The notes below the pieces were generated by a model. It had not been told where the DNA came from. It did not search any database and saw only the letters and a program-made list of their open reading frames with translations. The translations under genes and the position numbers were made by a program. 64,000 bases of DNA from a phage, in sequence record PZ445134.1. The stretch is one strand, 5' to 3'. Shown piece by piece: positions 788-53,442 of the stretch. Position 1 is the first letter of the stretch, and each line of letters opens with the position of its first letter.

Positions 788-937
788 CTAGTTGAACAGG
801 TTCTCTTTAATCACTTTAGCCGCTTTAGTTTCAAACAGGCCCATAAGGGCCTTTTTAAGAATTTGTTCGTTGTTGTTAATTTTAATAGTCAAAATCTCTT
901 CGTTAAGTTGGTGGTTAAAAGTTTTTCTAGAAATCAT
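788..937 (-). CDS. small hypothetical protein (~49 aa), coordinates approximate
   Basis: ATG overlaps stop of upstream 386-aa gene (ATGA coupling); below ORF-track size cut-off; contains GGCCC-ATAA-GGGCC hairpin internally. Confidence 0.3.
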   Translation of the reverse strand: MISRKTFNHQLNEEILTIKINNNEQILKKALMGLFETKAAKVIKENLFN

Positions 938-2094
938 TCTGGGTACCTCAAAGCGTCATCAGAGTTAGTTATATCAATAATAGATATAGAGTTTTCCGAT
1001 AACCCATTTTTAGATAACTGACGTTTATAATATCTTTCACAATATGTACACGTCGTCCCACAGATTTCATTAGCACAATCGAAATCTGGATGTTTGAACC
1101 ACCTTTTTTCTAAAAAGCCATCTAACAAAGAGGTTTCAATATTTACCGTATGTGAAAACTCAGTCTCATTTTCAAGAGTGAAAATGGTCTCTAAAGGCTT
1201 CCACAATTCCAACAAATTACCTTCAAATTTTTCAGAAGCATAAGCTTCAAGAACTTTCAAAATGTAGTCTGTGCTACCTGTACGTCCTGAAACTTTGAAT
1301 TGAGTGATACCAATATCATTATAAAGTTTCAAATCTTGAGGACGAACAAAACGAGTTCTCAACCAGTTAAATGGATCTGTATCACGAGCTTTAATACAGT
1401 GCTGCATTGGATATCCATTTAAGGATTTGGCATCATCTACTGTAACATCAGTGCTATGGAAAATATAGCAAGAGTCACGATAACTACAATGTGTTGTATA
1501 CCCTTTACCAGCATTAGAACAGAACTCATTTACAAGAACTTCAAATATTATATTGTTCTTATTACAAAACTCTGCTGCACGCTTCAGGAAAGAAACTGAA
1601 CGGTTCTTATGAATTCCACAGCAGACCTTTTTGATATTATATTGGTCATGCAAGTATTTGATTTGAGTTACAGCATCGACATGTAGAATTGTTGAAACTT
1701 CAATCTCAATGTCTTTATTGACTTCACGAACAATTTCCATAACAACAGGGTTAGCGATAGTAATACGCCAAACGCCTATTGACCAAAGATACTGAACATA
1801 ATCCTGAATAGCTTTCTTCTTCCACTCAACTAGTTCTCTTTTTGAACCAGGATTTATCGTGTTGAGTGTACAGTTAAAGCAAATACCTAATTCGTTACAA
1901 CGTTTAACGTAATCTTCTAACATCTTTTTGTCAACGTCAGGAAGCCTAAAATCAGGTCTGGCTGCTACAAAAGCCATTTCTCTTGTAGAGCCGTATACTT
2001 CGTTTATCAAGCTATTAGGATAAGTTTTATTGAGCTCTACGATTTTATCAAGAAGAGCTAAATCAAAATTCGTTCCGATTTTAAAGGTATTCAT
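934..2094 (-). CDS. Cys-rich 386-aa protein of unknown function; candidate hmC-sugar transferase or Fe-S enzyme
   Basis: ORF track; ATG at 2094; C-terminal cluster CANEICGTTCTYC (C-x4-C-x3-C-x-Y-C) plus internal Cys-rich stretch EFCSNAGKGYTTHCSYRDSC; weak resemblance to U32-family TIM-barrel proteins; last gene of the sugar cassette. Confidence 0.7.
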   Translation of the reverse strand: MNTFKIGTNFDLALLDKIVELNKTYPNSLINEVYGSTREMAFVAARPDFRLPDVDKKMLEDYVKRCNELGICFNCTLNTINPGSKRELVEWKKKAIQDYVQYLWSIGVWRITIANPVVMEIVREVNKDIEIEVSTILHVDAVTQIKYLHDQYNIKKVCCGIHKNRSVSFLKRAAEFCNKNNIIFEVLVNEFCSNAGKGYTTHCSYRDSCYIFHSTDVTVDDAKSLNGYPMQHCIKARDTDPFNWLRTRFVRPQDLKLYNDIGITQFKVSGRTGSTDYILKVLEAYASEKFEGNLLELWKPLETIFTLENETEFSHTVNIETSLLDGFLEKRWFKHPDFDCANEICGTTCTYCERYYKRQLSKNGLSENSISIIDITNSDDALRYPE

Positions 2095-2148
2095 TTTTGC
2101 ATCTCGCGTTAATTGTTGCGATGGTTTTTGCAGGTCTTACTTAAATTA

Positions 2149-2535
2149 TTATAGATTCGGTTTATATGATTTAAATGTTTCGAATTCGCCTTTATTCATA
2201 AGAGCTTTGAATTCGTCAGGACGCATAGCTTTGTCGTCGATAATCCAATCATATACTGGTTTATGTGTTAGCAAATTATGGTACTTCAATCCAATGTTTG
2301 CCAAGTTCTGAATCAGACTTGGGAGAATGTCAATTGCTATACGACCAGGACCGACTGACTTCATACCACGAGCAGTGTAAAGCGTTATGGTATGCCCTGC
2401 ATCATACAGGGCATTAATGGCAGACACCATTTCGACGTCTGGTTTGAAGTTCACGTAATCACGATTGTTATTCCACTCTGTTATACAATCATCGACATCA
2501 AAACAAAGATTAAGCATGTTTTCTACACGGTGCAT
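2149..2535 (-). CDS. HAD-superfamily phosphatase (putative sugar-phosphate phosphatase)
   Basis: HAD motif I FDVDDCIT near N-terminus, motif II TLYTAR, distal DD; start taken at ATG 2535 overlapping upstream stop (TAATG); ORF-track start 2550 is the alternative. Confidence 0.6.
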   Translation of the reverse strand: MHRVENMLNLCFDVDDCITEWNNNRDYVNFKPDVEMVSAINALYDAGHTITLYTARGMKSVGPGRIAIDILPSLIQNLANIGLKYHNLLTHKPVYDWIIDDKAMRPDEFKALMNKGEFETFKSYKPNL

Positions 2536-4220
2536 TAGATTCGTTCCCATTGATGAGTGATATCGCCACCGATTGGACGATAGGAAACACCAGTTTCTTT
2601 ATCAGTTAGTACCCATTTACCAGGATTTTTTGTAATCAGAGTAGCCGTTACAGGTTCTGCTACGTCATAACTAATAGAGCCGTCCTGAAGTACACGGCCC
2701 ATGTTACGTAATTGCTTAGTCAGAAGTTCCATACCTTTATAATATGCGGCTACCGCTTTAAGTGGATTATTCTTGAAATAACCACCTAATGCAATCCAGA
2801 TAATTGCCACTGCCAAATGATGATACTCGTTAAACGAACTCATCTTTCCATATTTGTAAACTAATGGATTGATGTTAATAGTCACATTACAAGTTGTTTC
2901 ATCAATAGTAAACTGTCCCCAGGTCGGATTAGCGTTGAATTCATCATACCCTGAAACAGCATAAAGCACTTTAGCTTCGTCATACAATTTTGGTCCGTAA
3001 ATCTTGGTTTCGCCAAAATATCCACGAGGGTCGATAAACTTGACTTCGCCGTTATCAGTAATCATAGTATTACTGAAGTTCGGGTCACCATGAATAACAG
3101 AGTACTGTCCCTGAGAACGGTTATGATAACGAATAAGGTGTTCTAAAGCTTGTTTCAACATTGGCTTCAGACGTCCGATCTTAGTGTAGTTCACATGTGT
3201 GATTTTACCAAATGAATCAATCAATGGTTGAATACTTTCACAACGATCAATAACTTTCGTATAGAATTCTTTAGTGAAATCACGACGAACAGTTTCAGGA
3301 CTTACAAAATAAGTGTCTGTGCTGAATTTCAGTGCGTCTAAAATTGCATCAACAATTTGTGGACGAGCAAGACTCGATTTGGATTTAATATATTCAAATG
3401 CCGGCTTACCTTTAATGCGTTCCATTTCAAAGTTATTTTCATTAACAGAAACTAACTGAGGAACTGAATCTGATTTCACTTTAAGATACCATGAAATCTC
3501 ATCTTTCTGAAGAGCTCGGCCCTGTTCGGTTAATGCGAATTTAGTTACAGTTTCTTCACCAATTTCAACGGCATTAAAACTACGATTAAGTTCACGAACT
3601 TCATGAGCTTTTTCAAGTTTAGGCATATCACCTAAATCAATTAGATTCATAAGCTCTGATTTATTGAATGCGCTGCCGTAAAGGAATTCTACGAAATCAC
3701 GTCCTTTGCAGTATTCATGAATTTCCTCATCAGTAGAACCCATATAGAATTCCCAGTCTTTGAACTGATAAATTCCTACAACATTACCACCTGTTGAACC
3801 TACGTTAGTGATATTTTCACCGTCGAAATTATATCGACATTCGTCGCCCTTAACATAGATTGCGTTAACATTCCAAGACCACGAACCAAAATCAGGAATA
3901 ATATCGCACCAGTTAACAATTACATTATGGCCGTCTAAATCTTTGTGTAATTTAGCAAGAGCATAAGCAGAACCGTACGCTTCATCAACTGTACGAATAG
4001 TCACATTGAACCCTTCTTGCTCACAATAAGCTCGAACAGTTTCAGCAAATTTTGAATGAACTACTACAATAATTTCATCTGCGCCAAGGTCAGAATAAAT
4101 TGTATACAAATTGCTCAGAATAGTGTCTTGTTTATAGTTAACAAGCACCTTAGGAATATGATGCGTTATTGGATACAAACGAGTTGCCAGTCCAGCACCA
4201 AGAATAACAGCTTTTTTCAT
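2535..4220 (-). CDS. bifunctional sugar-1-phosphate nucleotidyltransferase / protein-kinase-like sugar kinase
   Basis: N-terminus KAVILGAGLATRLYPIT matches RmlA/GlmU-type G-x-G-T-R-L-x-P-x-T motif; C-terminal HGDPNFSNTMI...FIDPRG matches APH/choline-kinase catalytic loop (HGDxxxxN) as in anomeric sugar kinases; ATG with GAGGA SD. Confidence 0.8.
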   Translation of the reverse strand: MKKAVILGAGLATRLYPITHHIPKVLVNYKQDTILSNLYTIYSDLGADEIIVVVHSKFAETVRAYCEQEGFNVTIRTVDEAYGSAYALAKLHKDLDGHNVIVNWCDIIPDFGSWSWNVNAIYVKGDECRYNFDGENITNVGSTGGNVVGIYQFKDWEFYMGSTDEEIHEYCKGRDFVEFLYGSAFNKSELMNLIDLGDMPKLEKAHEVRELNRSFNAVEIGEETVTKFALTEQGRALQKDEISWYLKVKSDSVPQLVSVNENNFEMERIKGKPAFEYIKSKSSLARPQIVDAILDALKFSTDTYFVSPETVRRDFTKEFYTKVIDRCESIQPLIDSFGKITHVNYTKIGRLKPMLKQALEHLIRYHNRSQGQYSVIHGDPNFSNTMITDNGEVKFIDPRGYFGETKIYGPKLYDEAKVLYAVSGYDEFNANPTWGQFTIDETTCNVTININPLVYKYGKMSSFNEYHHLAVAIIWIALGGYFKNNPLKAVAAYYKGMELLTKQLRNMGRVLQDGSISYDVAEPVTATLITKNPGKWVLTDKETGVSYRPIGGDITHQWERI

Positions 4221-4261
4221 GTTGTGGTCCTCATTGGTAAGTAGGAGTATTGTACACTATT

Positions 4262-4405
4262 CTAGTTAAAGCATTCATACTTTGCTTGTAGTCCAATCAT
4301 AATCCATCCGATTATAAGAGTCGGAATCATTACTGGAGCCGTTAAGCTCCAGTAGATAGTCATGACAAGCATCAATAGTAAAAGTCCTATTGTTATTGCT
4401 TTCAT
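4262..4405 (-). CDS. small hydrophobic membrane peptide (~47 aa), coordinates approximate
   Basis: Hand translation MKAITIGLLLLMLVMTIYWSLTAPVMIPTLIIGWIMIGLQAKYECFN; ATG overlaps stop of SIS gene (ATGA); occupies the position of imm in T4. Confidence 0.4.
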   Translation of the reverse strand: MKAITIGLLLLMLVMTIYWSLTAPVMIPTLIIGWIMIGLQAKYECFN

Positions 4406-5037
4406 TGTTCGCCTCGTAACATGGCACCTAGTGCACCGCCAGGGTGGAACTTAAGGAAGTCATTAGAGGTAAATCCACGTTCAGACGAAAGGTTGATAGC
4501 AAACGTATCGATAAGCGCTAACAACAATGTAGTGGACATAGTCGGAGCTAGAGAATTCTCATCAACCTCTACTGCGATGCCTGTACAGAACGTATAATCA
4601 AAAAGAGCTTCGTATTCTTGTGGAATGTCTGGGTTACAATGCAACAGAATCTGTTTGACGTTCGGACGAATCATTTTAAGATGCTTAGCCACGCCTATCA
4701 TTTCTTCAGTTTTACCGGAACGACTAATATGAATCAACACATCATTAGGCGCAATGAATCCTGCATCACCGTGAGAATAATGCCCAGTGTTCAAGTACAT
4801 ACTCGGGATACCGAGTGAAGCAAATGTCTCAGAAGCTTTAGTTGCAATATTAGCATTCTTACCAACACCTGTAATAATTACTCTGCTTTCATAATTACTA
4901 AGTCCCGGGCGTCGAAGAGTTTCTAGAATAGCATTATAACGAGCAGGGTTTTGACTAATTACTTTGGCCATAGCGGCCAAAGAAGAAGCTTGTTTTATGA
5001 TTGCGTCAATAGCGATAGTAATAGGAGTAGTTTTCAT
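4402..5037 (-). CDS. arabinose-5-phosphate isomerase, SIS domain only (KdsD/GutQ/KpsF family)
   Basis: VIITGVGKNANIATKASETFASLGIP and C-terminal SLAPTMSTT...FLKFHPGGALG align with my recall of E. coli KdsD SIS domain (VVVSGIGKSGHIG..., ...SHPAGALG); no CBS domains. Confidence 0.8.
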   Translation of the reverse strand: MKTTPITIAIDAIIKQASSLAAMAKVISQNPARYNAILETLRRPGLSNYESRVIITGVGKNANIATKASETFASLGIPSMYLNTGHYSHGDAGFIAPNDVLIHISRSGKTEEMIGVAKHLKMIRPNVKQILLHCNPDIPQEYEALFDYTFCTGIAVEVDENSLAPTMSTTLLLALIDTFAINLSSERGFTSNDFLKFHPGGALGAMLRGEQ

Positions 5038-18752: not shown

Positions 18753-19223
18753 TTAATCATGTTTCCACACCCCGTCGGTATTTGTCCAAAGTCGCTGATT
18801 ATCTGATCCTCGCCACAGTTTTTTGGTCGGAAGATTTTTCTCATACTTCCCATCAATAATAACATCAACATATTTAAGCATTTCTAGTTGTTTAATATCT
18901 TCAAACTTATATCCTGTCCACAACCAAATGCTTTTATTGGGATAAAGTTTTTTTACTGTTTGAACAATGCAATGAACAACATCTTGGTTATCAGGATAGA
19001 GAGGGTCTCCTCCAGTTATAGTTAATCCTTCTATATAATCGTTATTCAAACATTCAATTAATTGTTCCAGCGTTTCACCGGTGAATGGGATACCATTTCT
19101 AGCGTTCCATGTTGATTTATTATAACACCCCTCGCATTTATGCAAACAACCTGTAACGAAAAGAACGACCCTGCAACCGGGGCCATTCACAAAATCGCAA
19201 GGATAAAATCTATCATAATTCAT
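18753..19223 (-). CDS. nrdG: anaerobic ribonucleotide reductase activating protein NrdG (radical SAM)
   Basis: 156 aa; CLHKCEGC (Cx3Cx2C) near N-terminus; start overlaps nrdD stop. Confidence 0.9.
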   Translation of the reverse strand: MNYDRFYPCDFVNGPGCRVVLFVTGCLHKCEGCYNKSTWNARNGIPFTGETLEQLIECLNNDYIEGLTITGGDPLYPDNQDVVHCIVQTVKKLYPNKSIWLWTGYKFEDIKQLEMLKYVDVIIDGKYEKNLPTKKLWRGSDNQRLWTNTDGVWKHD

Positions 19224-20518
19224 TGGTGTTTAACCCTATGCATGATTTCTTTATTTTTGCCGAGATTAAATCCGCGTTCGTTCGGATTTCCAAGATAACC
19301 GCATGTTCTTCTTATTGTGTTCATCTTTTTAGGATCAGTTTCTCCGCAAACTGAACAAACAAATCCGTTTTCAGTAGGAGTCATTTCATGAGTACTTCCA
19401 CATGTAAAACATTTATCTACTGGCATATTAACACCAAAATAATCTAAATGTTGTGCAGCATAATCCCATACAGCCTCAAGACCTTTTAGGTTATTTTTCA
19501 TATCAGGAAGTTCAACATAAGAAATGTGACCACCAGTCGCAATGAAATGATATGGCGCTTCACGAGAAATCTTTTCAAACGGAGTAATATTTTCTTCTAC
19601 TGAAACGTGGAAACTATTAGTGTACCAGCCTTTATCAGTAACATCTTTTACACTTCCATATTTTTCGGTATCAAGTTTACAGAAGCGATAGCACAGGTTT
19701 TCAGCAGGAGTAGAATACAAGCTAAAAGCAAAACCGGTTCTTTCAGTCCACTGCTTAAGACGAGCATTCATTTTAGTCAAAATTTCCTGTCCAATATCAC
19801 GTCCGACAAGAATATTCAATTCGTGAATACCAATGTATCCTAAAGACACTGAACTTCTGCCGTTTTTAAATAACTCAATTATATCATCATCAGGTTTAAG
19901 ACGAACCCCAAATGCACCTTCTTGGTAAAGAATAGGAGCAACAGTAGCTTTAACTCCTTTTAAGGAACTAATTCTACACATCAAAGCTTCAAAACACAGA
20001 TCCATTCGTTCATTAAATAGCTCAACAAATTTCTGTTCATTGAATTGTGTTCCAATATAAGAATCTAACGCAATACGAGGAAGATTCAGTGTTACAACAC
20101 CAAGATTATTACGCCCATCAAGAATTTCATTACCAGTCGAATCTTTCCATACGCTCAAAAAACTACGGCAACCCATTGGAGAAACAGGAACAGATGAACC
20201 GGTGATAGCTTTATTATTCTTAACTGAAATAATATCAGGATACATTCTTTTGCTTGCACATTCTAACGCAAGCTGCTTAATATCATAGTTCGGGTCGTCT
20301 TTATAAAGATTAACACCCTCTTCAACGAACATAACAAGTTTAGGGAAAATAGGAGTTATCCCATCGCGACCAAGACCTTTAATACGATTTTTCAGAATTG
20401 CTTTCTGAATCATTCGTTCAGTCCAGTCAGTTCCCGTGCCAAATGTAATGGTTACAAAAGGCGTTTGTCCGTTTGAACTGAAAAGTGTATTTACTTCATC
20501 ATTATATTCAGCATGAGT
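19220..20518 (-). CDS. nrdD: anaerobic ribonucleoside-triphosphate reductase NrdD, exon 2
   Basis: C-terminal glycyl-radical motif RTCGYLG and Zn-ribbon CxxC pairs; 5' boundary is the inferred 3' splice site (approximate). Confidence 0.8.
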   Translation of the reverse strand, partial: THAEYNDEVNTLFSSNGQTPFVTITFGTGTDWTERMIQKAILKNRIKGLGRDGITPIFPKLVMFVEEGVNLYKDDPNYDIKQLALECASKRMYPDIISVKNNKAITGSSVPVSPMGCRSFLSVWKDSTGNEILDGRNNLGVVTLNLPRIALDSYIGTQFNEQKFVELFNERMDLCFEALMCRISSLKGVKATVAPILYQEGAFGVRLKPDDDIIELFKNGRSSVSLGYIGIHELNILVGRDIGQEILTKMNARLKQWTERTGFAFSLYSTPAENLCYRFCKLDTEKYGSVKDVTDKGWYTNSFHVSVEENITPFEKISREAPYHFIATGGHISYVELPDMKNNLKGLEAVWDYAAQHLDYFGVNMPVDKCFTCGSTHEMTPTENGFVCSVCGETDPKKMNTIRRTCGYLGNPNERGFNLGKNKEIMHRVKHQ

Positions 20519-21539
20519 CGCAAATTCATGCCCGTTTATATGAAACAACAAAATTTGGATAGTCCATAGATATGCAACGTTCTTTTATAGTGCTAGGATG
20601 AAAATTTAGCGCTTTAGCTGCTTCTATATAAGACGTATACTTAATACCGTCAACAACCACATATTCAGGAACTTTATGAATAGTAGTCTTAATACTCAAA
20701 ACAAGAGGATGAGTTTCGACTTCACTTTCAGTGCAATTTAAATATTCCGCTGCTTTTTTAAAACTTCTAAAAGTTTTATTTTTAAGCTTTATCGATACTT
20801 GTTTTTTACTTTTTCGACTATTGATATTATTTTGCACATGTTCCTTAGATCTTCTGTTTTTAGCATAATATTCAGCCACAGAAGATTTTATATTGTTTTT
20901 ATGAGATTCGGATAACACTTTACCCTTATGAGCATCTCTTAATTTTTGAATATGTTCTTCAGTATCCGGATGCTTATAAAACTTTTTACCGCCTATGGAT
21001 TTATTTAAACATTTTTTGCTATAAAAATATTTACGTATGACCTCTTCTTCATGTTTTAATGCATCTTTATAACTATCAAATGTTTTTAAAATTATCCATT
21101 TAGTAGGTGTATCAGTTTTTAAGCGTTCATTTATATACTTAGATGACGTTGTGTAAGTTTTCCAGTTTGTGGGCTTGTTTTTAATTGTTCTAAATTTTTT
21201 ATAACCGATATAAATGTCGCCATTAGAAAACTTAACTAAGTATGTAAATGCGTCTTTATCTTTTATTTTAGTACAACGTCTTTTTATCCATTTCATTGTT
21301 TCACCTCGTATTCATAAGATAATCTTATTTATACAAGATGACTGCTGCATGTCGCCATGCAGATTAGACTATATCTTCATCTTTCGATGCCGGCCGTTTC
21401 GAATAGCATTAGCTTCTATTCTACACCGCTACATTCATCACGGTTAGTCGTTAGGCATTTAGTTCAAAAGAACATTTAGCACGGGATTGTCTACTAGAGA
21501 GGTTCCCCGTTTAGACCGGTTTTACATGAGCCTGAATTA
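20519..21539 (-). mobile_element. group I self-splicing intron (T4 sunY/nrdD-type), boundaries approximate
   Basis: Minus-strand core elements in order: P-like UAAACGGGGAACC, Q-like AAUCCCGUGC, R-like AACGACUAA, S-like AAGAUAUAGUCU, and CUGCAUG-GCGA-CAUGCAG hairpin; in-frame UAA at intron start; ORF in 3' part. Confidence 0.7.
20526..21296 (-). CDS. intron-encoded GIY-YIG homing endonuclease (I-TevII-like)
   Basis: 256 aa; N-terminal FTYLVKFSNGDIYIGYKK GIY-YIG motif; NUMOD-like repeats and basic C-terminal DNA-binding region. Confidence 0.8.
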   Translation of the reverse strand: MKWIKRRCTKIKDKDAFTYLVKFSNGDIYIGYKKFRTIKNKPTNWKTYTTSSKYINERLKTDTPTKWIILKTFDSYKDALKHEEEVIRKYFYSKKCLNKSIGGKKFYKHPDTEEHIQKLRDAHKGKVLSESHKNNIKSSVAEYYAKNRRSKEHVQNNINSRKSKKQVSIKLKNKTFRSFKKAAEYLNCTESEVETHPLVLSIKTTIHKVPEYVVVDGIKYTSYIEAAKALNFHPSTIKERCISMDYPNFVVSYKRA

Positions 21540-22082
21540 AATTAACTCATACGCCTGGAATGCATCATATACGTCTTTTTCTGTTTTAGATTGGGCATAA
21601 TTCAACGCATCAGCGATTTGCCATTTTTCTGCATCCTCAATATGTTTTGCATAGGTGCGTTTAACATAAGGAGAAAGTACTTTGTCTACATTAGCAAAAG
21701 TCGTTCCGCCGTATTGATGGGAAGCAACCTGTGCGGTAATTTGTGCCATAATTGCAGTAGCAACACCAATCGATTTAGGCGTTTCAATTTGAGCATTGCC
21801 TAATTTAAATCCATTCTCAAGCATCCCCTTTAAATCGACTAAACAGCAATTAGTAAACGGAAGAGCAGGAGAATAATCAATATCATGCATGTGAATGATT
21901 CCGCTTTCATGCGCATGCATAATAAAAGACGGGACCATATTTTTGGCAATGTGCTTAGACACAATACCAGCCATAAGGTCCCGTTGAGTTGGAAAAACAC
22001 GAGAATCTTTATTAGCATTCTCGTTCAAAAGATCTTTATTAGTTTTATGAATTAATCCTTCAATTTCTTTTTCAATTTTCAT
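21540..22082 (-). CDS. nrdD: anaerobic ribonucleoside-triphosphate reductase NrdD, exon 1
   Basis: 181 aa N-terminal segment; ORF ends at a stop inside the intron; 3' boundary is the inferred 5' splice site. Confidence 0.8.
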
Positions 22083-39392: not shown

Positions 39393-39722
39393 TTATACTC
39401 TAGGCTTTTGAGCTTGTTTGGTATTGGATTCCCATGCGGCTTTGGTAATTTTGTTAGCGGCATAACCAAAGGCACTAGATAGAACACCTTTAGAGTTGAA
39501 TACATCCAATCCAATAAGTACGCCGGCTGTGCTAAATTTAGGAGCAAAGTACGCATTAGTTTTAGAAAGAGCTTTTTTCAATTCAGGGTCTTGAACCAAG
39601 CCATCAAAAACGCCTTTACTATTTACTTTATATGTTACTTTGGGATTTTTAGCTTCTTCGATAGCAGCTTTCTGTTCTGCAGATAATGTAACTTCAGTGA
39701 TAAACTCTTGATATGTTTTCAT
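39393..39722 (-). CDS. internal-protein-like protein with capsid-targeting sequence
   Basis: Starts MKTYQEFITE (T4 IP N-terminal targeting/cleavage signal); ORF-track N-terminal extension discarded. Confidence 0.65.
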   Translation of the reverse strand: MKTYQEFITEVTLSAEQKAAIEEAKNPKVTYKVNSKGVFDGLVQDPELKKALSKTNAYFAPKFSTAGVLIGLDVFNSKGVLSSAFGYAANKITKAAWESNTKQAQKPRV

Positions 39723-39834
39723 TTTGTTCTCTCTAAATTTGGGCCATGGAATGGCCCATGAATTGTCCATTTCTGTATTTACCACTCCAAGTAATTATGA
39801 ATATACTATCACAATTTTAGGAGAAAGTAAACTG

Positions 39835-40137
39835 TTATTTACCTTTAATTACTTTAGCTGCTTCGATAGCCGCTTGCTGAAGGTCATCCATAGACATACC
39901 GAATTTAGAAGCAAAGTTATCAATTTTCTTTTCGACAGCATTCAAAGGCTTGGCCTGTTTACCTTCATTAGCGCCAGGAAGAGCGAGAATACGCTCTTTG
40001 TCAATATAAAGGCTTACAAGTTTCTTACGGTCTTTATCGGACAAATCATGAAATGAATGGGCCTTTTTATTTATAGCGGATTCTAATTTACCTGCACTCA
40101 CTCGCGCTTCTGCAATAAATTCTTTATACGTTTTCAT
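39835..40137 (-). CDS. internal-protein-like protein with capsid-targeting sequence
   Basis: Starts MKTYKEFIAEA; 100 aa. Confidence 0.65.
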   Translation of the reverse strand: MKTYKEFIAEARVSAGKLESAINKKAHSFHDLSDKDRKKLVSLYIDKERILALPGANEGKQAKPLNAVEKKIDNFASKFGMSMDDLQQAAIEAAKVIKGK

Positions 40138-40200
40138 TTTTGTTTCCTTGTTTGTTTTGATAGAGTAATTATACCATATTAATACTTAAGCGTAAACTGT

Positions 40201-40461
40201 TTAAGCTTTACCGCCAGAAATAATTCCGAAGTTGTTAAAATCGTATCCAATATCGTCAACATCTACTTTAGGGCTTGCTACAACATAAGCAATTTCACTA
40301 CGTTTTGCATAGGTGTTGATTTCTTTACCATCGCCACCTAAGAAAGAATACCCATTACGTTTTAATGAGCCAAAGTCTTCCGCATCACCAATGAAAGCTT
40401 TAACTTTAAATTTATGACCTTTGGCATCTGCTTCAGCGATAAATTCTTGATACATTTTCAT
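40201..40461 (-). CDS. internal-protein-like protein with capsid-targeting sequence
   Basis: Starts MKMYQEFIAEA; 86 aa. Confidence 0.65.
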   Translation of the reverse strand: MKMYQEFIAEADAKGHKFKVKAFIGDAEDFGSLKRNGYSFLGGDGKEINTYAKRSEIAYVVASPKVDVDDIGYDFNNFGIISGGKA

Positions 40462-40467
40462 TTTTCC

Positions 40468-40881
40468 TTAGTAAATTGATTTACCATAGTATTTGTACCA
40501 AGTAGGACGTTGGGCAATTTTTTCGTCTAAGCGTGCTTGACTTATCGCAATGGACGCTTCGGACGGGACATAATTATTACGAAATTCGGCAGGGATGTCG
40601 GAAATATCCTGGACAGTCGTGTCCTTGATTTTGAAACCACGTTTCAAGCATTCAGCGATTAGCTCGATTTGTCGTAAACGTAAAAATTCGAGTTTGTCGT
40701 AAAAGAATGTTACGTGACCTGTGCCTAAGATAAATGTTGGAGAGATTTTAAAATCCTTTACACGTTTACCGTTTTGAACATGTTTACGGACTGCACCAAA
40801 TACGCGTGGTAATTCACGATACTCAGCCATAAGATGTTGGTCGGTCAGTTCAGAAACAAGTGTTAAATTGATACGAGTCAT
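40468..40881 (-). CDS. denV: endonuclease V (pyrimidine-dimer DNA glycosylase) DenV
   Basis: [34 protein letters not shown]... near-identical to my recall of T4 DenV; start at internal ATG. Confidence 0.9.
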
Positions 40882-40908
40882 AATTTCCTCCAAGTAGTTG
40901 ATGAATGT

Positions 40909-40938
40909 ATAGTATCAAAGTCCTTGGAGGAAGTAAAC
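40909..40938 (-). promoter_or_regulatory. T4-type early promoter inside inverted repeat (denV)
   Basis: Minus strand GTTTAC-18 nt-TACTAT flanked by UUCCUCCAAG/CUUGGAGGAA inverted repeat; 3' arm is the SD. Confidence 0.5.
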
Positions 40939-40939
40939 A

Positions 40940-41221
40940 CTATTTTTCTGAAGCGCCTGAAATATATTTTTCAAGACGTTGTTTCATTAGCGAGCCGTTC
41001 TTAGCGATTTCTTCCGGTTTATCGCACATACGCAACAAGGCTTCAAGCTTAACGATATCACTGGTGCGCTCAAATTTGCGAGTATCTATCTTACTAGCAA
41101 GTTCAGAAATACGTGCTAATAGACTTTCGGCTTCAACCAAAGCTGCACCTAGCTTAGTTGCAAATGTGTCAGTAGCTTCGTTAAGAATAGATTCTGATAA
41201 AAATTCACTATATGTTTTCAT
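40940..41221 (-). CDS. internal-protein-like protein with capsid-targeting sequence
   Basis: Starts [10 protein letters not shown]; start overlaps lysozyme stop (ATGA). Confidence 0.6.
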
Positions 41222-43934: not shown

Positions 43935-43964
43935 ACTATAACATAGTCCTATCATGTTGTAAAC
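43935..43964 (-). promoter_or_regulatory. T4-type early promoter inside inverted repeat
   Basis: Minus strand GTTTACA-18 nt-TATAGT; -10 sits in hairpin AUAGGACUA...UAGUCCUAU. Confidence 0.45.
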
Positions 43965-49440: not shown

Positions 49441-49810
49441 TTGCGGCAACCTTGTCGGGGTTCCACCTACTAGGTAAGTGTTTGTACGAAACGCCGGGAT
49501 TCGAACCCGGTTATTAAGCAGTTGACGCTACTCAATATTTTTAAAAGGCCGTATCTCGGCCATATCCGAACGTTCCGTCAAAAACGCTACTCGGCTTACG
49601 GCAAAGATATTTCCTCGAATCGATAATTCTGTGCGCCGTTTCTGCTGTGATGTAAGGGGATATTAACAAATCGTAAAGATTTATTAAGACCAGTCCTTAC
49701 GCAGGGAACATCAGTCCGACGACTTACCGGTAGCGACCCGGTTTCTTGTTTGGTGCGCCGGTGAATGCTGGTAATCAGTCTTCATACGACGGCTTGACTA
49801 TATAATAGTC
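49441..49810 (-). ncRNA. tRNA-like / small stable RNA region (possible T4 rnaC/rnaD analogue)
   Basis: No ORF; contains perfect T-arm-like CCGGGUUCGAAUCCCGG and an 8-bp acceptor-like pairing ~90 nt apart but no canonical cloverleaf; also a GGCGCACCA 3'-end-like motif. Confidence 0.3.
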
Positions 49811-49816
49811 TTCATT

Positions 49817-49891
49817 TGGTATCCCGCCCTGGGATCGAACCAGGACCGCAAACTTAGAAGGATCGTATGCTATCCATTACACCAGCGGGAT
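49817..49891 (-). tRNA. tRNA-Arg (anticodon UCU)
   Basis: Hand-folded: acceptor AUCCCGC/GCGGGAU, T-arm CCUGG-UUCGAUC-CCAGG, anticodon loop CUUCUAA, D-loop with GG, encoded CCA. Confidence 0.75.
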
Positions 49892-49896
49892 GTAGT

Positions 49897-49973
49897 TGGT
49901 GACCCCGACCAGATTTGAACTGGTAACCTTTCCCTTATGAGGGGACTGCTGCTAACCATTGAGCTACAGGGCC
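49897..49973 (-). tRNA. tRNA with CAU anticodon (Met or Ile2)
   Basis: Hand-folded: acceptor GGCCCUG/CGGGGUC (two G-U), T-arm ACCAG-UUCAAAU-CUGGU, anticodon loop CUCAUAA, encoded CCA. Confidence 0.65.
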
Positions 49974-50069
49974 TAAATAACTTTCTATTATGAAAGGCAC
50001 TTTAGAGCACCTTTGGTAATAGAGGGTATGAATTAATAATAACACATAATTCTTAAAGCAAATTACGTT

Positions 50070-50360
50070 TTACCGTACCATATTAATGTAATTATATTCA
50101 ATGCAACGTAATTTCAAAGGATTCTTGAAAATATCATATTCAAGAGGGCCTTTTTCTGTTTCAATAAAGAAATCAAAGTTAACTGTGTTAAATTTATCAT
50201 CTTCATAGAGTAATTTAACCTGTGAAGACGAACGGTCGATGTAAACCTTTTCAACTTCAAAATTAGTCAAAATACCATAGTCATCGACTAGTGCTTTAGC
50301 TGCACGTTGATCACTTTCGTATCCATTCTCGACAGATTTTACTTTAGCATAAAGAATCAT
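50070..50360 (-). CDS. hypothetical protein
   Basis: 96 aa ORF. Confidence 0.45.
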   Translation of the reverse strand: MILYAKVKSVENGYESDQRAAKALVDDYGILTNFEVEKVYIDRSSSQVKLLYEDDKFNTVNFDFFIETEKGPLEYDIFKNPLKLRCIEYNYINMVR

Positions 50361-50716
50361 GAGTGTTCCACCACTTCAAAAGTATGTGCACTGACAATCT
50401 GGTACCAGTCAAAATTTTCTTCAGCATTTTTGTAGATTTCACGAAGAGCTTCAACAGTTTTTCCTGTAGCAACAAGATCGTCAATACCGCCAAGAGGATA
50501 ACAGTCACCAGCAAACAGAAGGAAATTAATAGTTTCTGTAGGTTCTGGATGCAGAACACCGTTATCGTCTACCACTTCAAAGAAAGTGTAAGAAGGAGTA
50601 CAAGTTTTAATCCAAGCCCACGCTTGAGCCGCTGAATCAAATGGTCTGCGTATCAAACGACAATCAGGGTCTTTAGAAGGATTTGCTTCAAAATCCGCAT
50701 ATACATGATATTTCAT
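50357..50716 (-). CDS. hypothetical protein
   Basis: 119 aa ORF. Confidence 0.5.
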   Translation of the reverse strand: MKYHVYADFEANPSKDPDCRLIRRPFDSAAQAWAWIKTCTPSYTFFEVVDDNGVLHPEPTETINFLLFAGDCYPLGGIDDLVATGKTVEALREIYKNAEENFDWYQIVSAHTFEVVEHS

Positions 50717-50902
50717 TTACTCACCTTTTGCAATTTTATCCATAACGATAGCGATTAAGCCTATTAGAAATGCTACTACCAACGAGATAGAATTTTCTGT
50801 TGTTGTCAGTAGTCCACAAATGAATCCTACAAACATCGAAAAACTAAAAGCCATTGAAGCAATTACTACAGCAACATTACGAATCAGTTCAGCGCGTTTC
50901 AT
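50717..50902 (-). CDS. small membrane protein
   Basis: 61 aa, two hydrophobic helices. Confidence 0.4.
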   Translation of the reverse strand: MKRAELIRNVAVVIASMAFSFSMFVGFICGLLTTTENSISLVVAFLIGLIAIVMDKIAKGE

Positions 50903-50971
50903 TTTATTCTCCTCAGTAGTTGATAGGGTAATAGTATCACTACCCTATATAAAAGTAAACGGTTTTATAAA

Positions 50972-51280
50972 CTATTTTATTCCGCGTGATGCAATCGTAT
51001 TCTGCCGTTTAACGCCAGTTTGTTTAAAGTTATGATTGTCGAGTTGATCGGTGCGAGCAACTCCGAATGATGATTTAATCTTAGCTTTAGATCCTTTAGT
51101 TATAGAAATAAACATCTCGGGAGCCCCTTTCTTAAAGTCCGAAGCAATTACTTCAACACCGTTCTTAGCAAGTGACTTCATAATTGCTTCCGCATACTCA
51201 TCATCAAGACCCGCTTGAGTATGAATAACGAATGTCTTTGGTGCAGCCGCTTCATTGATAAATTCTTTAAATGTTTTCAT
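50972..51280 (-). CDS. internal-protein-like protein with capsid-targeting sequence
   Basis: Starts MKTFKEFINEA; 102 aa. Confidence 0.6.
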   Translation of the reverse strand: MKTFKEFINEAAAPKTFVIHTQAGLDDEYAEAIMKSLAKNGVEVIASDFKKGAPEMFISITKGSKAKIKSSFGVARTDQLDNHNFKQTGVKRQNTIASRGIK

Positions 51281-51340
51281 TTTATTTTCCTAATTAATTT
51301 TGATGAGATAATAGTACCACTACCCTATCTAAAAGTAAAC

Positions 51341-51613
51341 TCATTTTAAATAAATTGCGTATTTTTTATAGCCACCAGGCTCGTGTCGAAGACCCCTATC
51401 ATTAGCAAAACGCTCAATGTTGTTAATTTGATTCTGGTCAAGTTCAGAGATGTCAAACACGAAATAGTTACGTTTGTTACCAACTGTTACATAGTCAGTT
51501 AAATCAATACCATATAGGTAATTGATGTCAGCAATCATAGTCTTGACAGCTTTGCTAATTTTTACTTTTTCGTTAAAAGTAGCTTCATTGATAAATTCTT
51601 TAAATGTTTTCAT
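51341..51613 (-). CDS. internal-protein-like protein with capsid-targeting sequence
   Basis: Starts MKTFKEFINEA; 90 aa. Confidence 0.6.
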   Translation of the reverse strand: MKTFKEFINEATFNEKVKISKAVKTMIADINYLYGIDLTDYVTVGNKRNYFVFDISELDQNQINNIERFANDRGLRHEPGGYKKYAIYLK

Positions 51614-51644
51614 TTTATTTTCTTAATTAATTTTGATAGGACCT

Positions 51645-51674
51645 ACTATAACATAGTCCTATCAACATGTAAAC
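51645..51674 (-). promoter_or_regulatory. T4-type early promoter inside inverted repeat
   Basis: Minus strand GTTTAC-18 nt-TATAGT; flanking inverted repeat AUAGGAC/GUCCUAU. Confidence 0.45.
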
Positions 51675-51676
51675 TA

Positions 51677-51940
51677 TTAAATACCTGCTTCGCGCTTAAC
51701 ATAAGCAACATAAGCTTCGATAGCTTTCTTGCTGGTAATTTTTACCTGACCGCGTCCGTTGCCTTCTTTAGAGTTTTTCTTAACAACTACATTACCATCT
51801 TTAACACCCCATACATGGACATAAGTACCGATGTTTCGGTCGTAGAACATTGCATGGTCGTTGTTGTAAGAGAATGATTCGTAGTTCTCTGTCAGAGTAG
51901 AAGATTGAGATTCAGCGATAAATTCTTTATACGTTTTCAT
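51677..51940 (-). CDS. internal-protein-like protein with capsid-targeting sequence
   Basis: Starts MKTYKEFIAES; 87 aa. Confidence 0.6.
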   Translation of the reverse strand: MKTYKEFIAESQSSTLTENYESFSYNNDHAMFYDRNIGTYVHVWGVKDGNVVVKKNSKEGNGRGQVKITSKKAIEAYVAYVKREAGI

Positions 51941-52017
51941 TTTATTTCCTTGAGGTCGTTTATTTGATAGGATGATAGTAACACACCATCATCCTTATGT
52001 AAACTGTTTTGTGAAAA

Positions 52018-52703
<686 letters not shown>

Positions 52704-52707
52704 TTTA

Positions 52708-53442
52708 TTACCTTAAGATTTTTTCAATTTTAGAATAAAGCTCTTCTAAAGAGCCGTCGTTTGTAATAACTAAGTCGCCTTCTTCAATAGGCAACCCAGC
52801 TTCTGTAATATGTTTATCAGTGGATTCCGTACCAGAGCGAACCACATGAATAACTGTAGCACCCATCGCTCTAGCGGTTTCCATTTCATGGACTTGACGT
52901 GTATCGGTCACAACGTAGTAATCGAAATCACTTCCAATATAATCCATATAGTTTAATGCAAAAAGCTTAACCCAATACATACGGTCAAATAAATTAACGA
53001 CAACATCCGTACCGAGGGCTTGCATAAGACGGCGGATCGACCACGTGTCGTTGATATTATTTATAGCTTCACGCAGGGCTTCATACGGTTTAATATCTAG
53101 ATATGAGTATCCACCTTCTAGTGATGATAATACGTTAACACCATTAATTGGCAGGTATTGTCGTTGTAAATAAATTAGCGTTTCTTCCATTAATTCAATA
53201 ACATCCAACTTATTGATATTTAATGGTGTTTCACGGTCGTATCCAATGCCTTCAAAGTATTCATATTTCAACTCAGTGAATACATCTGGGTTTTCGGCGT
53301 GTTTACGCTCCCAAGCTATTGCTAGAGCGTCTTTAATTGGATATGCTAATTGATATTTTACGGATTTAAAGTTTGAATTGATGTAATCAGCAGTAGTGTC
53401 TTTACCACTACGTTTGATGCCGCTTAAAAAGATTAGCTCCAT
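52708..53442 (-). CDS. 1: deoxynucleoside monophosphate kinase gp1
   Basis: 244 aa; MELIFLSGIKRSGKDTTADY... P-loop; matches my recall of T4 gp1. Confidence 0.9.
   Translation of the reverse strand: MELIFLSGIKRSGKDTTADYINSNFKSVKYQLAYPIKDALAIAWERKHAENPDVFTELKYEYFEGIGYDRETPLNINKLDVIELMEETLIYLQRQYLPINGVNVLSSLEGGYSYLDIKPYEALREAINNINDTWSIRRLMQALGTDVVVNLFDRMYWVKLFALNYMDYIGSDFDYYVVTDTRQVHEMETARAMGATVIHVVRSGTESTDKHITEAGLPIEEGDLVITNDGSLEELYSKIEKILR

Follow-up and report, generated by a model that had tools for sequence, protein, structure and literature searches.

An array of three capsid-targeting-sequence genes at the ipI locus of a Mosigvirus: candidate injected proteins and a mapped cassette junction

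Gene content and targeting sequences of the array

The 64,000 nt of phage record PZ445134.1 analyzed here (the window, to which all coordinates refer) contain, between homologs of the T4 genes 57B and tRNA.4, an array of three neighboring minus-strand open reading frames (ORFs), each beginning with a decapeptide that resembles the capsid-targeting sequence (CTS) of the T4 internal proteins (IPs). An initial annotation, made from the sequence alone, had described three consecutive genes of 102, 90, and 87 amino acids (aa); their starts and exact coordinates were confirmed (Table 1), and the genes are here called ip7, ip9, and ip87. Synteny with the tRNA.2, tRNA.3, and tRNA.4 homologs on one side and with 57B, 57A, and gene 1 on the other bears out the claim that this is the position of ipI in T4. 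The array had also been placed upstream of 57B, which is correct in plus-strand coordinates only; with respect to transcription it is downstream of that gene, and the order runs from gene 1 through 57A and 57B to the array, and on through tRNA.4, tRNA.3, and tRNA.2 to the two tRNA genes. Taken together, these data identify the array as a hyperplastic locus of the ipI type, with the genes Ip87, Ip9, and Ip7, in a Mosigvirus (RB69-like T-even phage). Because the anti-CBASS nuclease gene 57B/Acb1 directly adjoins the array, the locus forms a small counter-defense neighborhood.

All three decapeptides are close to MKTYQEFIAE, with position 4 aromatic and phenylalanine at position 7. In the T4 CTS, residues 4 and 7 drive targeting, residues 8 and 10 are required for processing, and the gp21 protease cuts after L/I-X-E; the first ten residues of IPIII are enough to load proteins, foreign ones included, into the prohead core (PMC9026906). 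The corresponding putative gp21 site occupies residues 8–10 in each of the three proteins and is followed by a small residue (I-N-E/A in Ip7 and Ip9, I-A-E/S in Ip87; the slash marks the expected cut). When all six frames were scanned for ORFs starting with MK[TM][YF]xEF[IL]xE, seven tagged ORFs were found in the window, as compared with a chance expectation of about 1e-5 (from amino-acid composition and 495 candidate starts); three are those of the array, and the other four form a second IP array at 39393–41221, so that the count of seven candidate injected proteins in the initial annotation holds. CTS-bearing genes in the window are confined to these two IP loci. Chance ORFs or a chance motif were considered as an explanation and are ruled out by this excess and by conservation across hundreds of records. 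The functional positions of the tag (aromatic residue 4, F7, I8, and E10) are intact in all seven genes and in the Ip9 orthologs, while the other positions vary; phenylalanine at position 4 is presumably tolerated, judging from its occurrence in many Ip7 and Ip9 orthologs.

A related gene outside the window departs from this pattern. The IpI-like gene of phage NHEP10 (L003 2144–2431) starts MKTYKEFISPDANV; Glu10 is absent and the gp21 site is apparently lost, so that, by the T4 mutational work, packaging would be expected to be kept and cleavage not.

Table 1. Coordinates of the array, its cassettes and flanks, and of other features of the window discussed in the text
Feature	Position	Strand	Description
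ip87	51677–51940	minus	87 aa; CTS MKTYKEFIAE, then S; mature part 77 aa, isoelectric point (pI) 9.2
ip9	51341–51613	minus	90 aa; CTS MKTFKEFINE, then A; mature part 80 aa, pI 8.9
ip7	50972–51280	minus	102 aa; CTS MKTFKEFINE, then A; mature part 92 aa, pI 9.8
CTS codons of ip87 (residues 1–10)	51911–51940	minus	I8-x-E10 fits gp21 cleavage motif
CTS codons of ip9	51584–51613	minus	within 56-nt direct repeat 51582–51637
CTS codons of ip7	51251–51280	minus	within 56-nt direct repeat 51249–51304
Cassette before ip87	51941–52017	minus	−35 GTTTAC 52004–51999; −10 TACTAT 51980–51975; 12-bp hairpin over spacer and −10
Cassette before ip9	51614–51676	minus	−35 GTTTAC 51674–51669; −10 TATAGT 51650–51645
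Cassette before ip7	51281–51340	minus	−35 GTTTAC 51340–51335; −10 TACTAT 51316–51311
Cassette after ip7, before tRNA.4 homolog	50903–50971	minus	−35 GTTTAC 50960–50955; −10 TACTAT 50936–50931
57B, Acb1 anti-CBASS nuclease	52018–52473	minus	Pfam Acb1 7e-59; array boundary, transcriptionally upstream side
57A	52473–52703		between gene 1 and 57B in transcription order
Gene 1, dNMP kinase	52708–53442		first of the neighbors in transcription order
Late-promoter consensus TATAAATA	53058–53065	minus	inside gene 1; nearest on coding strand
tRNA.4 homolog	50717–50902	minus	61 aa, hydrophobic, no CTS; PHROG 1692; other array boundary
tRNA.3 homolog	50357–50716		follows tRNA.4 homolog in transcription order
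tRNA.2 homolog	50070–50360		follows tRNA.3 homolog in transcription order
tRNA-Met and tRNA-Arg	49817–49973		last of the neighbors in transcription order
Second IP array, ORF	39393–39722	minus	109 aa; MKTYQEFITE
Second IP array, ORF	39835–40137	minus	100 aa; MKTYKEFIAE; PHROG "internal virion protein" family, IPII-like
Second IP array, ORF	40201–40461	minus	86 aa; MKMYQEFIAE
Second IP array, ORF	40940–41221	minus	93 aa; CTS-bearing
Peptidase_U32	934–2094	minus	adjoins DNA polymerase gene
NTP-transferase	2535–4220	minus	561 aa; same cluster, beside 133-aa ORF
SIS-domain protein	4402–5037	minus	same cluster (934–5037), left of gp43

Promoter-hairpin cassettes

The intergenic cassettes before the three genes are 60–77 nt long and consist of a GTTTAC hexamer, a spacer of 17–18 nt, and a TG-extended TACTAT or TATAGT; a fourth cassette stands between ip7 and the tRNA.4 homolog, which carries no CTS. 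All four cassettes align, and the −10 hexamer is followed by ...ATCAA... and then by a Shine–Dalgarno sequence with AATAAAATG (AAGGAAATAAAATG before ip87). Each has an inverted repeat across the spacer and −10 hexamer; its sequence varies from cassette to cassette with the pairing kept. Three of the four hairpins fold better than shuffled sequences: those before ip87 (minimum free energy (MFE) −17.8, z-score −3.3), before ip9 (MFE −15.1, z −3.6; the promoter here has 10 of 12 consensus matches and the TG extension), and after ip7 (MFE −12.9, z −1.8). The hairpin before ip7 is weak (z −0.5) and no better than shuffles. Of the earlier claim that each gene has its own hairpin-embedded early promoter, the promoter stands for all three genes, and so does the hairpin, weakly for ip7. 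[quoted passage not shown] A consensus terminator scan of 50600–52600 found no terminator-like site, and no U-tract follows the stems; stem-loops of this kind could possibly act as attenuators.

Promoter motifs of this type number 24 on the minus strand of the window and 2 on the plus strand, with an average of 2.2 in shuffles, and about half of the minus-strand sites bear such a hairpin. This distribution indicates that hairpin-embedded early promoters are general to the early regions of the phage and are not a specialty of the IP loci. Examples beyond those loci have GTTTAC at 43964, 45259, 37307, 32409, 28262, and other minus-strand sites; those at 43964 and 45259 carry the GATAGGACTATGTTATAGTAGTCCTATC hairpin of the ip9 cassette and could be further recombination partners.

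Between the genes of the array, a segment of about 100 nt comprising promoter, Shine–Dalgarno, and CTS recurs. The resulting direct repeats consist of the cassette and the first 30-odd coding nucleotides; the 56-nt copies at 51249–51304 and 51582–51637 are 98% identical. As in PeSL and PeSL-like cassettes, an early promoter together with a stem-loop flanks the accessory genes (Arbiol 2010, PMC2839356; Comeau 2014, PMC4122927). In contrast to PeSL, which have sigma-70-like promoters and polyG/polyC stems, the cassettes described here use T4-type early promoters (GTTTAC...TAnnnT) and AT-rich stems, a combination already remarked on at T-even IP loci by Arbiol et al. (PMC2839356).

Identity and relatives of the cargoes

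The product of ip7 is 94% identical over its full length to Ip7 of phage RB15 and matches PHROG 2667, "internal head protein" (3e-40); its mature part is present in 284 phage records. The ip9 product is 86% identical, again over its full length, to "Ip9, Enterobacteria phage RB15" (P0013) and matches PHROG 7673, also "internal head protein" (2e-53). The 87-aa family is found in 36 of the 50,697 records of an August 2025 phage collection and is labeled "hypothetical protein" in every one; in 29 phage records the identity to Ip87 is 94–100% over the full length, all of them with that label. The only PHROG match of Ip87, to PHROG 13302 of unknown function, covers residues 16–87 only.

An exhaustive search with Ip87 of 1.84 billion cluster representatives returned three matches; no relative was found in IMG/VR, and a word-indexed search gave only the identical cluster. 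A 73-aa Dhakavirus protein (IME08, AnYang, IME341), 66% identical to Ip87 residues 17–82, is the second of the three matches and the closest relative beyond the cluster of Ip87 itself. Its gene, located between gene 52 and motA, follows a GTTTAC-type early promoter, and the protein starts MKTLNINSFF, without a CTS. The third match, to a 1331-aa repeat protein (E 2e-5 over about 40 residues), was treated as uninformative. For the Ip9 cargo, too, a relative without the tag exists, a 72-aa protein of the Kagunavirus siphophage UTEC10 with 50% identity. This cargo also weakly matches the C-terminus of a hypothetical Ackermannviridae protein of 964 aa (35% identity, E 5e-6; L006 1501–1722, Salmonella phage allotria, Kuttervirus), and its top fold match in BFVD is a 535-aa protein with 29% identity; the Ip9 fold may also form a domain within larger phage proteins. 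The AlphaFold2 model of Ip9 (predicted local distance difference test score, pLDDT, 78) is a small alpha/beta (helix/strand) sandwich with generic structural neighbors only, and the single-sequence AlphaFold2 model of Ip87 (pLDDT 50) was discarded as unusable.

The three mature parts show no detectable similarity to one another or to the four of the second array (best E 0.11), in agreement with the earlier description of three different cargoes. Paralogous duplication of a single cargo is ruled out by this lack of pairwise similarity and by the assignment to three different PHROGs. The mature parts are also dissimilar to the IPII-like ORF of the window, which falls in a different PHROG.

Haplotypes and recombination within cassettes

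No record among the 50,697 has all three genes together. Read from 57B towards the tRNA genes, the order in the window is 57B-Ip87-Ip9-Ip7-tRNA.4; AV112, AV113, and RPN187 have 57B-Ip87-Ip9-tRNA.4; S143_2 and SQ17, in which the tRNA.4 homolog is labeled y07D/tRNA.4, have 57B-Ip9-Ip7-tRNA.4; NHEP10 has 57B-IpI-like-Ip87-tRNA.4; and RB15 has 57B-Ip5-Ip9-Ip7-Ip8. Five haplotypes thus occur among phages with 98.6–99.2% identical DNA polymerase genes, together with RB15, as would be the case for accessory genes. RB15 shares with the window the Ip7 and Ip9 orthologs, in the same relative order at the same locus, and differs in its flanks, which are Ip5 and Ip8 there and Ip87 and tRNA.4 here.

Homology breaks off at 50920 and 51641 relative to RB15 and at 50912, 51608, and 51972 relative to NHEP10; all breakpoints (50912–50920, 51275, 51608, 51641, and 51972) are within cassettes or CTS codons. 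Mapping of mismatches shows that 51330–51680 is of the AV112 type, with one mismatch, and that the sequence leftwards from 51320 is of the SQ17 type, which places the junction at 51321–51329, in the cassette between ip7 and ip9. By this pattern the array is the union of two common Mosigvirus haplotypes (Ip7-Ip9 and Ip9-Ip87), joined in that cassette. Junctions between related genomes therefore fall inside cassettes, as do those in PeSL-like elements; cassette shuffling has been proposed for "PeSL-like" elements at the two IP loci, and the junction fits this proposal (Arbiol 2010, PMC2839356). The tag of Ip9 differs among orthologs (MKTFKEFINE, MKTYQEFISE, MKTYQEFIAE, and MKMYQEFITE). In RB15 it is MKTYQEFISE, whereas in the window it is the same as that of the neighboring Ip7, which fits an exchange within the repeat.

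Both tagless genes, in Dhakavirus and in Kagunavirus, start close to the end of the CTS in their tagged counterparts. That of Dhakavirus further shares with the IP cassettes the GTTTAC promoter, an ...CTATCAAAA... segment, and the ATGAAAAC start. The existence elsewhere of tagless relatives of two cargoes suggests that the tag cassette captures ordinary early proteins. More tentatively, the promoter/Shine–Dalgarno/CTS cassette may serve as a general plug-in by which cytoplasmic early accessory proteins become injected ones; we put this forward as a conjecture somewhat short of an even chance.

The neighboring tRNA cluster varies as much as the IP array does. At 49817–49973 it consists of just two genes, Arg-TCT and Met-CAT; the close relatives AV112 and RPN187 have at least seven to ten there, and NHEP10 has two. 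No known RNA family other than these two tRNAs was found in 49500–52600.

Phage identity and DNA modification

The DNA polymerase gene (gp43) is 99.2% identical to those of Mosigvirus AV112 and AV113 and 98.7% identical to that of RPN187; the phage is a Mosigvirus. The cluster at 934–5037 matches the Mosigvirus sugar-precursor cluster for DNA with arabinosylated 5-hydroxycytosine, and no ORF of the size of an alpha-glucosyltransferase gene is present between genes 47 and 55. The NTP-transferase, SIS, and Peptidase_U32 genes together with this absence correspond to the layout of arabinosylating Mosigviruses (PMC13390438).

Proposed function of the array

The array resembles the IP genes of T4 (IPI/Ip1, IPII/Ip2, and IPIII/Ip3) in the ten-residue N-terminal CTS with an I-x-E gp21 site, in the ipI position from tRNA.4 to 57B, in its small and mostly basic cargoes, and in being made up of nonessential, variable genes. 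It differs in that no similarity of the mature parts to Ip1–3 is detectable, in having three genes where T4 has one, and in its host phage, a Mosigvirus in which cytosine is arabinosylated rather than glucosylated. On the strength of this analogy we consider it likely that the three proteins are packaged by means of their tags, cut by gp21 after Glu10, and injected, and that they block first-response nucleases of the host. Each gene is a self-contained cassette, in which an early promoter with its hairpin, a Shine–Dalgarno sequence, and ten CTS codons are joined to an unrelated small basic cargo. By the T4 precedent, the CTS would bind the assembling scaffold core of the prohead, and gp21 would cut after Glu10 (I-x-E) to release mature proteins of about 8.6–9.9 kDa; these would stay with the packaged DNA, enter the cell with it, and act ahead of phage gene expression. 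Each cargo may then neutralize one specific first-response defense, most plausibly one subtype of the GmrSD/BrxU type IV restriction nucleases, which cut DNA containing sugar-modified cytosine. With three different cargoes and one defense each, the outcome would be a wider host range.

Several published observations provide the precedent. Each of the T4 proteins Ip1, Ip2, and Ip3 inhibits a GmrSD-type type IV restriction enzyme of its own, and none cross-protects (PMC12373910); the host cytoplasm is where IPIII acts, and IPIII expressed by the host is still functional without its CTS (PMC9391042); and BrxU, a GmrSD-family enzyme, cleaves arabinosylated Mosigvirus DNA (PMC13390438). These findings make subtype-specific inhibition of modification-dependent nucleases the most likely role by analogy.

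Four sets of observations weigh against this reading. First, no Pfam, NCBIfam, or functionally annotated PHROG match hints at a target of any of the three proteins; their Pfam matches are insignificant (AbiJ_NTD3, E 0.022; Tenui_NS4, E 0.018). Second, a sequence search of the PDB gave no significant chain (best E 0.27 and 0.029, with one query matchless). Third, the array carries promoters of the early type only, and prohead assembly is a late event. Fourth, the tagless homologs of Ip87 and Ip9 in other phages indicate that these folds can work unpackaged. No homology to a characterized GmrSD inhibitor (IPI*, Ip2, or Ip3) was found, nor any link by sequence or fold to another protein of characterized function, and a literature search returned nothing usable on virion proteomics of Ip7, Ip9, or Ip87 or on the functions of Ip7 and Ip9. 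An NMR (nuclear magnetic resonance) structure of IPI* is available in the PDB (PMC3012670).

The question of timing can be framed more closely. No late promoter TATAAATA is present within 50900–52020, and the copy inside gene 1 is the sole such motif able to give late read-through over 57A, 57B, and the ip array. Late supply of the proteins would therefore depend either on early protein that is stable or on read-through starting at that motif; the latter is plausible because the hairpins lack U-tracts.

The strong early-type promoter of each gene, combined with the absence of a late one from the array, could also mean that the cargoes are mainly ordinary early proteins and that the tag is a by-product of cassette recombination, contributing little. 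The tagless homologs in Dhakavirus IME08 (73 aa) and Kagunavirus UTEC10 (72 aa) agree with this, as does the activity of host-expressed IPIII lacking its CTS (PMC9391042). We nevertheless give it little credence: the functional positions of the decapeptide are kept across the seven genes and the Ip9 orthologs where the other positions vary, tagged genes in the window occur only at the two IP loci, and ten residues suffice in T4 to package foreign proteins (PMC9026906).

A second alternative accepts packaging and assigns the proteins a mainly structural role, in charge neutralization of the DNA or in core or head assembly, as has been proposed for T4 IPIII. The mature parts are indeed basic (pI 8.9–9.8), IPIII and triple-IP mutants of T4 show head-assembly aberrations, and each IP is present in about 300 copies per head (PMC9026906). 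Close relatives, however, freely gain, lose, and swap these genes, which is a poor fit to a structural requirement; the folds of the cargoes are unrelated; and all three T4 IPs have specific anti-restriction targets (PMC12373910). A primarily structural role accordingly seems improbable to us.

A third alternative retains packaging, injection, and an anti-defense role and changes the target, to other modification-sensing nucleases or to systems unrelated to DNA modification. The cargoes have no sequence or fold similarity to Ip1–3; the folds of the Ip9 and Ip87 cargoes also occur outside the Tevenvirinae or at other loci; and the neighbor 57B is itself an anti-CBASS nuclease. The Kagunavirus, at least, may lack sugar-modified cytosine, which would point the same way. 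Against this, delivery ahead of gene expression pays off most against nucleases attacking DNA as it enters, and all three characterized internal proteins hit GmrSD-family enzymes (PMC12373910). We regard targets other than type IV enzymes as possible for these cargoes, if on the unlikely side, and inhibition of type IV nucleases by packaged and injected proteins as the probable function of the array.

Other features of the window

The second IP array at 39393–41221 contains no CTS-bearing ORF of IPIII size (193 aa), and a TATAAATA motif is present at 40068–40075, inside its IPII-like gene. Elsewhere, nrdD, encoding the anaerobic ribonucleotide reductase, is in two pieces at 19220–22082 on the minus strand. 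The piece at 21537–22082 corresponds to positions 1–141 of the Pfam NRDD profile, and that at 19220–20551 to NRDD positions 145–562 plus the glycyl-radical domain; an ORF for a GIY-YIG SegE-like endonuclease (20526–21296) lies between them. Rfam shows no group I intron at gathering score. The split can be read either as an intron carrying an ORF or as a free-standing endonuclease interrupting the gene.

Significance

The system described here is the known T-even internal-protein system at the known polymorphic ipI locus, and its novelty is modest. Repoila reportedly described in 1994 two polymorphic IP loci with promoter/stem-loop elements, and the names Ip7 and Ip9 are said to date from that year. 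More than 30 IP variants have since been cited (Arbiol 2010, PMC2839356). The new elements are minor: an 87-aa family nowhere annotated as an internal protein, a three-gene haplotype absent from the August 2025 phage collection, and tagless relatives elsewhere for two cargoes. The established picture is unchanged, and the gain consists of a single unannotated member and a recombination junction that is clearly mapped.

Injected internal proteins decide whether a T-even phage's sugar-modified DNA survives the first nucleases of the host. After fifty years, targets are to our knowledge established for T4 Ip1–3 only, and we know of none for dozens of other cargoes, Ip7 and Ip9 included. The window represents a Mosigvirus, with arabinosylated DNA and seven candidate injected proteins; its natural relatives without Ip7 or Ip87 can serve as they are for comparison in mapping host range, and with the tagless relatives of two cargoes the contribution of packaging to an anti-defense protein can be tested directly. 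The Dhakavirus relative of Ip87 shares the GTTTAC-type promoter and MKT start and differs in its lack of a tag and in its locus; its production and action are presumably confined to the infected cell. If the tag was indeed gained by recombination in a shared leader, T-even phages would recruit anti-defense proteins from the wider phage gene pool, and Ip87 would be a recent, datable example of recruitment into the injected set.

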